From assembly GCA_034520885.1 (NCBI GenBank), contig JAXHNE010000003.1, forward strand, positions 22,073 to 86,072: a DNA stretch of 64,000 nucleotides. The letters run 5' to 3'. Numbering within the stretch: position 1 is the stretch's first letter; each line of letters starts with the position of its first letter. The notes below the pieces were generated by a model. The model worked only from the letters and a program-made list of their open reading frames with translations, did not search any database and had not been told where the DNA came from. Shown in pieces: positions 59,885 to 62,917 of the stretch. The translations under genes and the position numbers were made by a program. This DNA comes from Candidatus Saccharimonadota bacterium. GTDB taxonomy: Bacteria; Patescibacteriota; Saccharimonadia; Saccharimonadales; JAXHNE01.

Positions 59885-61287
59885 TATTTGACGCCCTTTA
59901 TGTCGCCCTTCATGTAGAAGGCGCTTTCCGGCTTATCATCGTGTTTGCCGTCCAGGATTTCGCGGAAGGCGGTAATAGTATCTTTCAGTGGCACGTACAG
60001 CCCGGGGTTACCGGTGAACTGTTCGGCCACGAAGAACGGTTGGCTCAAAAACCGCTGAATACGGCGGGCCCGGTTAACGGTTTGCTTGTCTTCGTCGGAC
60101 AGTTCTTCCATGCCCAAAATGGCGATGATGTCTTGCAAGTCTTTATAGCGCTGCAAAATTCGCTGCGTGTCGCGGGCCACGTTGTAGTGATCCTCGCCAA
60201 CGATCTCCGGATCCAGCAAGGTTGAGCTGCTGTCCAGCGGGTCAACTGCCGGATAAATCCCGATTTCCGTTAACGCCCGGTTCAACGTAATGGTGGAATC
60301 CAGGTGGGCAAACGTCGTGGCGGGAGCAGGGTCGGTTAAGTCGTCCGCCGGCACGTACACGGCCTGTACGGACGTCACGGAGCCTTTTTTGGTACTGGTG
60401 ATGCGTTCTTGCAAAGCGCCCATTTCTTGCGCCAGGTTGGGCTGATACCCCACGGCGGAAGGCAAGCGGCCGAGCAGGGCGGACACTTCAGCGCCGGCCT
60501 GCGTAAAGCGGTAGATATTATCCACGAACAACAGCGTGTCCTGGCCTTGGTCACGGAATTGTTCGGCAATGGTCAGGCCGGATAGTGCCACGCGCAAACG
60601 GGCTCCGGGCGGTTCGTTCATTTGCCCGAACACCAGCGAGGTTTTATCGATCACGCCGGACTCGGTCATTTCGTCGTAAAGATCATTGCCTTCGCGCGTA
60701 CGCTCACCGACACCGGCGAACACACTGGTGCCGCCGTGCTCTTTGGCGATGTTGTTAATCAGCTCCTGAATCAGCACGGTTTTACCCACGCCGGCACCGC
60801 CGAACAGGCCGACCTTTCCGCCCTTGCTGATCGGGCAAATCAAATCAATCACTTTGATGCCGGTTTCCAAAATCTCTACTTCGCCGGATTGCTCCGAAAG
60901 AGCAGGGGGGCTTTTGTGGATCGGTGAGGTTTCCTTGAACTTGTCCGGCTTGTTATCGATCGGCTCGCCCACCACGTTGAACATTCGCCCCAACGTATCC
61001 TTGCCGACCGGCACGCTAATCGGAGCGCCGGTGTCTTTTACTTTTACGCCACGCTGCAGGCCGTCCGTCGCGCCCAGGGCAATGGCCCGCACGCCGGTTT
61101 CACTCAAGTGCTGCGCTACCTCTAACACCAGCGTTTTTCCGTTATTGTCGACTTCCAGGGCGTTAAAAATTGCCGGGAGGTACTCTTCACTGAACTCCAC
61201 GTCGACCACCACGCCCACGATTTGGCTGATATTTCCCGTACTCGCGGCGTTCGACTTTTTACTTTTAACTTCTTGCGTTGTTGCCAT
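59884..61287 (-). CDS. atpD: F0F1 ATP synthase subunit beta
   Basis: Walker [29 protein letters not shown], and the acidic-loop region MEELSDEDK. Confidence 0.97.
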
Positions 61288-61532
61288 TAATTATCTCCTT
61301 TGGCTTCATTAGCTGATTTTAGTCTTCGAATAATTCCTTGAGCCACCGTTCGTTCGTCAAAATTTTGCGGTCGTAAATCGTACTCAGAACTGTTGGCAGC
61401 GCGCTGTATATGCTCTTCCACGGCATCTGGTAGGGCGGAAAGTACTTCATCAATCTGAGCCCATTCCGTTGCAGTATAGCCTTCGTAAAGCTCACCATCA
61501 ACGTCACTGCGTTGGGCTTCACAATCAAGCAT
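61287..61532 (-). CDS. hypothetical small acidic protein (81 aa)
   Basis: Start MLDCEAQ after GGAGGAAG, with an 8-nt overlap (ATGCTTGA) on the previous ORF. Its stop overlaps the atpD ATG (TAATG). Confidence 0.4.
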
Positions 61533-62256
61533 CGGCTTCCTCCATAGTTTCGTCCAAATCTTCCGTTTTGGATGTACTAATCGCAGCCGCAAAGCGTGCG
61601 CCTTCGACAAACTCATCATAATAATTACCGACTAACTGCGCTGAAGCAAACCTGCCTCTCTTACGAATATGCTCCTCTTCTTTGGTGCGTACATAGTCCT
61701 CGGCCGCCTCGACAAACTCGAGCGCCCCAGGGGCGAGACACGCAAGGTCAACTTCTGGGAATGCTCGTGACAGAATACCTTTATTTTCAACGGCTGGCCC
61801 CGGTTCATCCGCACCCGAACTTTCCTCAGGCGCGGTTACTAACTCGCCGTGCAAGACATCTTCAGCATTTTGAGATTCAACGTATTCATTATGCTTTGCC
61901 TGCATCGCTTCCATTATTAACAGCTCTTGGCGCGTCGACAAACATTGCGGTTCAATACCGCCTTGATCCGCGCGGCCACAAATAATATTTACGAGCTCGT
62001 TCCTTTCAAGCTGGGAAAGTTCAGTAGTGTCAACCGGCGCGTCAAGTAAGCCCACGTAGTGATAGGCGCTCACCACAAGTTCAGCTTCTTGTTCGCTCAA
62101 TCCAAGATATCGAGGAGTCGAGTCATCATCCTCATAACCAAGAATACCTATCGCCTCCTTAAAAGGGGGGAGGGAGTCGGTTTCTGAGGTCGCTGGAGAA
62201 GGCGGCATGTATGGCAAATCCGGATCAACTGGAAAATGCATGCTTTCAATACCCAT
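61525..62256 (-). CDS. hypothetical acidic protein (243 aa)
   Basis: ORF of good length; no motif recognised. Confidence 0.45.
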   Translation of the reverse strand: MGIESMHFPVDPDLPYMPPSPATSETDSLPPFKEAIGILGYEDDDSTPRYLGLSEQEAELVVSAYHYVGLLDAPVDTTELSQLERNELVNIICGRADQGGIEPQCLSTRQELLIMEAMQAKHNEYVESQNAEDVLHGELVTAPEESSGADEPGPAVENKGILSRAFPEVDLACLAPGALEFVEAAEDYVRTKEEEHIRKRGRFASAQLVGNYYDEFVEGARFAAAISTSKTEDLDETMEEADA

Positions 62257-62275
62257 TACGCGTCCTCCATGTCTT

Positions 62276-62461
62276 CTATGTCAGGAAAGATATCACCCCC
62301 AATAAGTCCTGCGGCATCCCCATTTTTAAGCGCGAGCATGTACGCACCAAGTTGCCGCGACGTTTGTTCTGGACGCCGCCGGATAAGTCGCTCGGAACAT
62401 TGGGTAGTGGAGTAGGTACCGTAATGGACGTTTTATCCGAACCAAAAACTTCGCCTCTCAT
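62276..62461 (-). CDS. hypothetical small protein (61 aa)
   Basis: ATGA overlap with the stop of the preceding ORF, in the same context as the atpG stop. Confidence 0.3.
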   Translation of the reverse strand: MRGEVFGSDKTSITVPTPLPNVPSDLSGGVQNKRRGNLVRTCSRLKMGMPQDLLGVISFLT

Positions 62462-62489
62462 TTCATGGCCTCCACTGCACCTGTTAGCT
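62457..62489 (-). repeat. atpG 3'-end repeat, orphan copy
   Basis: CTCATTTCATGGCCTCC (plus strand) is identical over 17 nt to 62885-62901, followed by about 16 nt of partial identity. Confidence 0.8.
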
Positions 62490-62889
62490 CCACGTAACGG
62501 TGAACTTTTCTTGCGCTTGCTAAAACATCCCCAAAAACACGAATTGCTTGTACTCTTGTTATTGCTGCCTCGTCAGGGAACTCAACATCAACCATATCTT
62601 TAAGTAGATTACCCGTAAATAATTCTACTGCTGTTTCTTTGTACTCGGTGTCCGCTGTCGTATCAAGGACGCCGACAGCACCCTGAAACGCAGCACAGAG
62701 TATTTGCTCAGGATCGATTTCTATGTCATAGACACCTTGTGTTTCAAGTCGTTCATCACACGTTGCAGCAAAAAACTCCCGTGCTATTCCATCCATTTGC
62801 TCCACTAATGTATCCGTAAAGTACGTCTGCGGCATCAACCTTTCATATGTATGCCTTAATTGAAACAACGTTGTGTCCCCGTCACTCAT
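62458..62889 (-). CDS. hypothetical protein (143 aa) ending in an AtpG-like C-terminal peptide
   Basis: C-terminus ELTGAVEAMK, compared with AtpG EITGGAEAMK; ATGA overlap with the atpG stop. Confidence 0.45.
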   Translation of the reverse strand: MSDGDTTLFQLRHTYERLMPQTYFTDTLVEQMDGIAREFFAATCDERLETQGVYDIEIDPEQILCAAFQGAVGVLDTTADTEYKETAVELFTGNLLKDMVDVEFPDEAAITRVQAIRVFGDVLASARKVHRYVELTGAVEAMK

Positions 62890-62917
62890 TTCATGGCCTC
62901 CGCTCCGCCGGTTATTT
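62885..62917 (-). repeat. atpG 3'-end repeat, functional copy
   Basis: See the orphan copy at 62457-62489. Confidence 0.8.

Follow-up and report, generated by a model that had tools for sequence, protein, structure and literature searches.

Small lineage-restricted open reading frames between atpG and atpD in a Saccharibacteria genome: probable serial insertion at a coupled gene junction

In the F1 ATP synthase cluster of a Candidatus Saccharimonadota bacterium (assembly GCA_034520885.1), the gene for the gamma subunit (atpG) and the gene for the beta subunit (atpD) are separated by four small open reading frames (ORFs), the first of which ends in what looks like a copy of the atpG tail. How did these ORFs come to lie between two conserved genes, and how does the copied tail relate to their arrival? 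Both questions were addressed in a 64,000-nt stretch of the 88.7-kb contig JAXHNE010000003.1, hereafter the window, whose positions serve as coordinates; the F1 genes and the ORFs between them, here called cargo, are read on its minus strand. The atpG-atpD block measures 1.6 kb and contains ORF143, ORF61, ORF243 and ORF81, all on the same strand as the F1 genes (locus tags U5L95_01330 to 01345; the NCBI proteins of the locus are MDZ7785749-53). AtpG itself shows a best identity of 65-77% to any other genome. The analysis below indicates that the block is probably a stack of promoterless, lineage-restricted ORFs inserted serially at the coupled atpG junction in one Saccharibacteria lineage.

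The repeated atpG junction

The 17-mer GGAGGCCATGAAATGAG, composed of the last nucleotides of atpG and the start of the next ORF, is found at 62885-62901 and 62457-62473 and at no other place in the whole window. The coding sequence of atpG ends ...EITGGAEAMK-TGA and that of ORF143 ends ...ELTGAVEAMK-TGA. A reading made from the sequence before any search (the original prediction) had described this identity, a weaker similarity upstream of it, and a chain of gene overlaps leading to atpD. On re-check the coordinates, the ATGA overlaps, the 8-nt and TAATG overlaps and the terminal 17-nt identity were all correct, and the upstream similarity was borne out by a local alignment of the two junctions, which lie 428 nt apart and match in 25 out of 30 nt. 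A repeat search of the window returned 35 nt at 83% identity with the same 428-nt spacing. When the 17-mer was searched with up to three mismatches, 0.13 matches were expected in shuffled sequences.

Since the 17-mer holds a Shine-Dalgarno sequence and an ATGA stop/start overlap, it was necessary to examine whether the two junctions had converged, with no duplication at all, on an optimal Shine-Dalgarno-spacer-ATGA coupling signal. GGAGG and ATGA make up 9 of the 17 identical bases, and the ribosome-binding site of atpG itself, GGAGGCCAAAATG, is similar, in that it resembles the core of the duplicated tail. As a null set, 127 other ATGA stop/start junctions from Saccharibacteria loci were scored against the atpG tail over 21 positions. 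The end of ORF143 agrees with the atpG tail at 19/21 positions, whereas the null junctions have a mean of 9/21 and typically score 13 or less; the few scoring 16-20 are probably atpG tails as well, from loci to which no label could be given. GGAGG-N7-ATGA is present in the window at these two junctions and nowhere else, and the similarity continues upstream of the Shine-Dalgarno sequence. Moreover, the nusG and thyX repeats described below are exact over 42 and 29 nt with no such signal to explain them. The similarity of the two termini is thus above chance, as had been proposed, and convergence, effectively refuted by the comparison with 127 junctions, is given hardly any weight here.

The source is a metagenome-assembled genome, in which repeats at variant boundaries can misjoin, and strain variants concatenated at a shared k-mer could in principle mimic an insertion. 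The Logan contig L001 (SRR26473340), from an independent assembler, agrees with 61719-63771 at 100% identity and spans atpG-ORF143-ORF61-ORF243, which argues against misassembly. The same architecture is seen in five unrelated assemblies, and we judge an exact repeat of 17 nt to be too short to join contigs at the usual k-mer sizes. An assembly artefact was rejected on the independent identical contig, and its probability is next to nil.

The two junctions could also be what is left of a tandem duplication that covered only the last 428 nt of atpG, the second copy having diverged except for its Shine-Dalgarno/ATGA end. Coordinates worked through by hand show that such a copy would share the reading frame of atpG from the ATGA onward, and it could have been kept open since translation must reach atpD; the 17-nt core is visibly constrained and is identical in the relative L162 too. 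Outside the last 30 nt, however, the in-register nucleotide identity is 24.1% versus 25.8% in the null (z -0.7), the BLOSUM score of the proteins has a z of 0.55, a local alignment is no better than 13% of shuffles, and BLAST detects no similarity. The GC content at third codon positions (GC3) drops from 0.64 in atpG to 0.37 in ORF143, and the first cargo ORFs of other genomes, with 97-186 aa, are unrelated to AtpG. With in-register and local comparisons both at the null level, ORF143 as a diverged duplicate or paralogue of atpG was rejected, and we regard a decayed duplication as very improbable.

Mismatches between the two junction copies are unevenly placed, with five in the 13 upstream nucleotides and none in the 17-nt core; under a uniform rate the probability of such clustering is about 0.015 (hand calculation). 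A core that is identical in both copies and in L162 while the upstream part diverges suggests constraint on the Shine-Dalgarno-to-start module. Around junction copy 2 the RNA folds no better than shuffled sequences (z +1.5) and contains no hairpin or palindrome, which is consistent with an open ribosome-binding site.

Insertion beside atpG in related genomes

The view of a junction before insertion comes from one between-species comparison, with contig L162 (SRR21824751), in which the C-terminal half of AtpG is 81% identical to that of the window and ends in the same 17-mer. There the gene for P0004, a homologue of ORF243, starts directly in the atpG ATGA, and the segment holding ORF143 and ORF61 (62257-62889, 633 nt) is missing. 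The presence of an ORF243 homologue right after atpG points to this segment as an insertion in the window: the ancestral place of ORF243 would be immediately after atpG, ORF143 having arrived later. The contig ends at 1300-1327 in CTGTCTCTTATACACATCT, a Nextera adapter sequence, so that the last codons of its third ORF are not genomic. Compared in this way, the four ORFs would be a stack from at least two events and not one cargo. The proposal that cargo had entered at the stop codon of an essential gene is supported, L162 locating an insertion at the atpG stop/start; the repeat, however, brackets ORF143 only and not the four ORFs. That an old terminus had been displaced and fused to cargo agrees with the tail copy at the end of ORF143, but the two copies cannot be told apart in age.

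We then surveyed the 125 loci in which atpA, atpG and atpD had all been located. The distance between atpG and atpD extends from about 0 to 1272 nt and is 150 nt or more in 67 out of 125 loci; values of about 0 are found in the distant relatives and non-Saccharibacteria loci that were included and in one subclade of Saccharibacteria. The ORFs in the gap are on the same strand, usually start in the atpG ATGA, are acidic and are for the most part unrelated from one genome to another; 68 of the 117 ORFs are singletons. Cargo GC3 is below core GC3 in 56 out of 63 loci (p=3e-10). In two loci with AtpG of 92% identity (L041 and L106), nucleotide homology breaks off precisely at the ATGA and is regained at the ribosome-binding site of atpD. 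Such variation in the length and contents of the gap shows that the arrangement is not invariant and not ancient. Across Saccharibacteria the atpD-atpC and atpA-atpG gaps differ in length as well, and no tail duplication was found at either of these junctions.

In five further genomes the gap contains a copy of the resident atpG tail, always located at the end of the first cargo ORF and overlapping the start of the second (Table 1; the L041 copy is weak). The gene that follows the copy provides the order of events. One family (A) stands directly after atpG in L021 and L145 and after ORF144 plus tail copy in L031; another (B) stands directly after atpG in L006, L013 and L047 and after ORF186 plus tail copy in L024; and a homologue of the second cargo ORF of L041 stands first among the cargo of L106. 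The internal junction of L031 agrees with the junction between atpG and family A in L145 at 20/21 positions, counted by eye. Because the genes that follow the copy in L031, L024 and L041 belong to families that stand directly after atpG elsewhere, new cargo has been added beside atpG, with the old junction pushed downstream. Among 1206 ORF tails in 1.15 Mb there was no broad excess of duplications, the clear cases being the nusG and thyX tails of the window and the atpG tails; the footprint is therefore rare and site-biased, not common to every gene.

The cargo ORFs and their expression signals

ORF143 is acidic and predicted to be all-helical, and its last nine or so codons and its stop probably derive from junction copy 2. 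It matched only itself among 5.8 billion proteins, as did ORF81 in a homology search. The initial search with ORF243 also returned only the query; an exhaustive HMMER search of 1.84 billion representative proteins then revealed a single homologue, P0004 (43% identity, E 2e-41), in an alignment with conserved motifs. By these searches ORF143 and ORF81 are orphans, in agreement with the original description of four orphan ORFs, which fails for ORF243: judged from its sequence, this is a real conserved, fast-evolving protein-coding gene. An exact look-up, with no search for distant homologues, places ORF61 alone in its 90%-identity cluster.

Scans of the cargo ORFs against Pfam, PHROGs, PADLOC and NCBIfam gave no meaningful match and no recombinase, transposase, homing-endonuclease or defence domain; for LAGLIDADG, GIY-YIG, HNH and PD-(D/E)XK there was nothing at E<=1 in Pfam and PHROGs or at E<=0.1 in NCBIfam. 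No relatives of ORF143 or ORF243 were detected in viral contigs, and the cargo has no further copies in the window. The AlphaFold2 models are of low confidence (predicted local distance difference test 47.7 for ORF143 and 58.3 for ORF243), and a Foldseek search of the PDB with the cargo models found nothing below E 0.5.

The composition of ORF143, ORF243 and ORF81 is coding-like, with more G+C at the first than at the second codon position and a codon score that is positive only in the annotated frame. Their GC3 lies at 0.32-0.45 (0.37 in ORF143 and 0.32 in ORF81) versus 0.61-0.70 in the core genes. ORF61 has a basic composition, a GC3 of 0.57 and a codon score of 0.10. Its second half has a G+C content by codon position of 0.37/0.50/0.71, which is not coding-like, while an alternative frame gives a coding-like 0.68/0.35/0.48. 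As annotated, ORF61 is probably not a gene; its composition points to a frameshifted remnant of an older cargo ORF, of which the 27-codon ORF in the alternative frame (MLALKNGDAAGLIGGDIFPDIEDMEDA) is possibly the C-terminal part. The 205 nt that separate junction copy 2 from ORF243 would then be explained by such a remnant.

GGAGG precedes the ATG of each cargo ORF at a distance of 6-7 nt, and, apart from the 19-nt spacer after ORF61, successive genes are joined by overlaps (ATGA, ATGCTTGA, TAATG; Table 1). A promoter and terminator scan found no internal signal above shuffled expectation and no promoter/terminator pair that brackets a cargo ORF; an Rfam scan of 58900-64000 found nothing. From the GGAGG before each start and the lack of internal promoters and terminators above chance, we infer that the cargo is co-transcribed and translationally coupled with the F1 genes. 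The simplest reading is that the cargo proteins are hitch-hikers in the operon; an association with F1 is possible.

Table 1. Features of the F1 locus in the window, and atpG-tail copies and members of the ~90-aa family in other Saccharibacteria loci (named in the first column)
Feature	Position	Strand	Remarks
atpG, F1 gamma subunit	62886-63752	-	Pfam PF00231, E 1e-86; GC3 0.64; MDZ7785753.1; ATGA overlap with ORF143
Junction copy 1	62885-62914	-	last 9 atpG codons, GGAGG Shine-Dalgarno, ATGA and 1 nt of ORF143
ORF143 (143 aa)	62458-62889	-	cargo; starts in atpG ATGA; ATGA overlap with ORF61
Junction copy 2 (atpG-tail copy)	62457-62486	-	25/30 nt identical to copy 1; 17-nt core identical
ORF61, as annotated	62276-62461	-	MDZ7785751.1; starts in second ATGA; 19-nt spacer to ORF243
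27-codon ORF in alternative frame	62256-62339	-	ends in TAATG on ORF243 start
ORF243	61525-62256	-	cargo; own GGAGG Shine-Dalgarno; 8-nt overlap with ORF81
ORF81	61287-61532	-	cargo just upstream of atpD; GGAGG 6 nt before ATG; TAATG overlap with atpD
atpD, F1 beta subunit	59884-61287	-	GC3 0.70; tblastn matches in 80 loci; TAATG overlap with ORF56
ORF56 (56 aa)	59714-59884	-	second cargo slot, atpD-atpC; 31-nt overlap with ORF96
ORF96 (96 aa)	59454-59744	-	second cargo slot, atpD-atpC; ATGA overlap with atpC
atpC	59029-59457	-	end of cluster
L031, atpG-tail copy			18/21
L109, atpG-tail copy			17/21
L073, atpG-tail copy			16/21
L024, atpG-tail copy			15/21
L041, atpG-tail copy			14/21; weak
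L145, ~90-aa family	8861-9133
L031, ~90-aa family	9301-9591
L021, ~90-aa family	8864-9130

Two further observations concern neighbouring cargo positions. ORF56 and ORF96, between atpD and atpC, have a GC3 of 0.52-0.55, nearer that of the core genes, and may thus be older cargo. In other Saccharibacteria a family of about 90 aa (nine members, no Pfam match) is always located just upstream of atpD (examples in Table 1) and may be a lineage-specific protein tied to the atp operon; ORF81 was not detectable as a member of this family. In addition, intergenic leaders of the window contain G-poor short-period repeats: CTATCAC-like heptads upstream of atpG (63753-63810) and CCACCT/CTAAC-like runs at 10953-11123.

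Origin of the insertions and their meaning

The following sequence of events is proposed for the atpG junction. In the latest event the body of ORF143 would have been placed right after the ATG of the atpG ATGA, with duplication of about 30 nt comprising the last nine atpG codons, the GGAGG Shine-Dalgarno sequence and the ATGA. In this way atpG would keep its native C-terminus and stop, the new ORF would use the resident Shine-Dalgarno sequence and start codon, and the displaced junction copy would end the new ORF and re-initiate translation of the gene downstream. That gene would once have been the ORF243-family gene; now a decayed ORF61 segment and then ORF243 follow the displaced copy. Duplication of the junction may be the simplest way to preserve all three functions, namely the atpG C-terminus, initiation of the new ORF and initiation downstream. 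Selection would retain only insertions that leave the essential junction functional, and it is also the proposed reason why the 17-nt core has stayed identical. As the origin of the insertions we favor illegitimate recombination independent of an integrase, which may have been homology-facilitated or caused by template switching during replication.

The same genome carries comparable repeats at two other sites. The nusG tail (42 nt) is present in three tandem copies on the plus strand (6297-6349, 6584-6636 and 7136-7188), each ending at the ATG of the next ORF, and five low-GC3 ORFs occupy the nusG-rplK space, so that the parallel with nusG drawn in the original prediction is real. Copies 1 and 3 are identical over 42 nt and copy 2 has six mismatches; copies 2 and 3 share 12 more upstream nucleotides that are missing from nusG. 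Since copy 2 is read out of the nusG frame, it is the DNA and not the peptide that was copied, and the duplicated peptide is a by-product. At the second site, the last 29 nt of a tmk-thyX fusion gene of 835 aa (15711-15739) are repeated with 100% identity 164 nt downstream, at 15875-15903; the 135-nt insert contains no ORF, and no coupled gene lies downstream. An inverted arm at about 15847-15872, just before the repeat, gives a hairpin of -30 kcal/mol (z -3.45) followed by a T run, and the repeat pair therefore looks like a terminator.

Other features of the window were recorded alongside these repeats. Between rplK and rplA, a 245-aa orphan-like ORF (8495-9232, plus strand, GC3 0.42) begins in an ATGA shared with the rplK stop; it gave no domain match and no tail duplication. 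The low-GC3 island at 33482-44424 (0.27-0.39), beside a 512-aa ORF whose N-terminus resembles serine recombinases as judged by eye, is probably an integrated mobile element. It has internal repeats at 39273-39309 and 42000-42036, with others at 39369/40713/42080 and 39696/42115. A perfect 26-nt palindrome, GTGTTATATAACTAGTTATATAACAA, occurs at 44509-44534 and 45493-45518, flanking a 253-aa ORF (44617-45378).

Insertion by an integrase is classically recognised by direct repeats that reproduce the 3' end of a gene, here 17-42 nt long, and the insert after atpG is flanked by such repeats (junction copies 1 and 2). The cassettes could then be miniature integrative elements of a cis-mobilizable-like kind, whose att-like repeats equal the 3' end of the target, whose recombinase acts in trans and which accrete in tandem; cis-mobilizable and integrative mobilizable elements have been reviewed (PMC5704250). 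In the Dehalococcoides ssrA islands, 3'-end integration with 20-bp direct repeats and tandem accretion have been described (PMC3146451). The loci studied here resemble 3'-end genomic islands in that the target gene is left whole, the insert is bounded on its far side by a copy of the 3' end of that gene, new cassettes join beside the target, arrays form by repeated events (as in the three nusG-tail copies) and the content differs between strains. They differ from such islands in size, with inserts of 0.16-0.56 kb and not kilobases, in the lack of an integrase module, and in that single promoterless ORFs are fused in frame to the host junction. No cargo ORF encodes a recombinase, and the tail copies have no hairpin or palindrome. 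At least three targets occur in 64 kb, and the tails concerned (atpG, nusG and tmk-thyX) are unrelated, so that three site specificities would be required. Apart from the large serine-type ORF beside the separate island, nothing recombinase-like was seen in the window, and to our knowledge enzymes of the large serine type leave no long direct repeats. Taken together, integrative elements are an unlikely, though not a negligible, explanation of the stack.

Other mobile systems share single features with the locus. Integron cassettes are promoterless single ORFs in one orientation, the newest at a fixed upstream site and served by an upstream promoter. The cargo stack is likewise promoterless, has one orientation and carries its newest member beside a fixed upstream site; however, its repeated boundary is the tail of the host gene itself and not a cassette-borne site, junction copy 2 has no attC-like imperfect palindrome (z +1.5), and no IntI was seen. 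Free-standing homing endonuclease genes and phage morons sit between conserved genes, and duplication of the host gene's 3' end is known from some mitochondrial examples. The cargo ORFs are similar to them as small ORFs between conserved essential genes, present or absent among relatives; no nuclease domain was found in them, and no promoter/terminator pair of their own. For insertion sequences and miniature inverted-repeat transposable elements, the scans showed no transposase domain, with no search aimed at terminal inverted repeats at this locus. Transposable elements make target-site duplications of 2-14 bp, unlike the 17-30 nt duplicated here and the 29-42 nt at the other sites of the window.

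The addition of ORFan genes to operons is closer to the process proposed here. According to Price, Arkin and Alm (2006, PMC1480536), ORFan genes inserted next to native genes form or modify operons, and in E. coli insertions inside pre-existing operons are reported as uncommon. The cargo fits this class as lineage-restricted genes (ORF143 and ORF81 matching only themselves, ORF243 with one homologue) downstream of a native gene, with low GC3, a likely foreign or phage-like origin and presumed expression from the native promoter; the gene overlaps and a GGAGG before each start are present. Unlike the insertions of E. coli, the internal junctions of an essential operon are occupied in more than half of the genomes examined, and fast turnover of content and junction duplication set the locus apart from ORFan operon insertion. 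Homology-facilitated illegitimate recombination in natural transformation (PMC3240628) could add short foreign DNA beside a conserved anchor such as atpG with no element-encoded enzyme. A flanking duplication of 20-40 nt is not its typical product. A literature search found no description of such a pattern in Saccharibacteria.

Several points weigh against serial insertion at the atpG junction as set out above. The direction of the change, insertion in the window and not deletion in L162, is taken from one 1.3-kb contig and from analogy with the other genomes. In the simple model junction copy 2 should abut ORF243; the ORF61 segment intervenes, and an extra, older event has to be assumed. The uneven mismatches between the copies would need selection or gene conversion, so that the insertion is not datable from them. 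No recombinase, transposase or homing-endonuclease domain was found to explain the insertions, with no dedicated search for terminal inverted repeats. The tmk-thyX duplication with no coupled gene downstream indicates that a translational-coupling filter is not the whole story.

A wider proposal, which we put forward with considerable doubt, is that Saccharibacteria run an integrase-independent, polar addition of cassettes at the coupled junctions of essential operons (the F1 genes and nusG-rplKA), and that these junctions act as nurseries for the inserts that survive. An insert would survive only if it could be translated through to the duplicated tail of the upstream gene and also restored initiation of the essential gene downstream. 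Under these two demands, new protein-coding genes with high expression might arise at the junctions from DNA that is foreign or arbitrary. If this were true, hypervariable small acidic proteins would be co-produced with F1 and might modulate the ATP synthase or the interaction with the host bacterium.

Saccharibacteria genomes are very small, and yet a conserved essential operon in them is a hot spot of fast-changing genes with no assigned function. The junction duplication would be the footprint of each insertion and shows gene addition beside a core gene; it offers a concrete model for how bacteria with reduced genomes may gain and express genes with no new promoters. Were the process general, part of the large orphan-gene content of the Candidate Phyla Radiation could be due to it, and an ORF ending in a copy of the tail of the upstream gene would be a simple signature of recent gene gain. 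The cargo proteins are candidates for lineage-specific partners of the ATP synthase, an idea that is testable since at least one Saccharibacterium is genetically manipulable.

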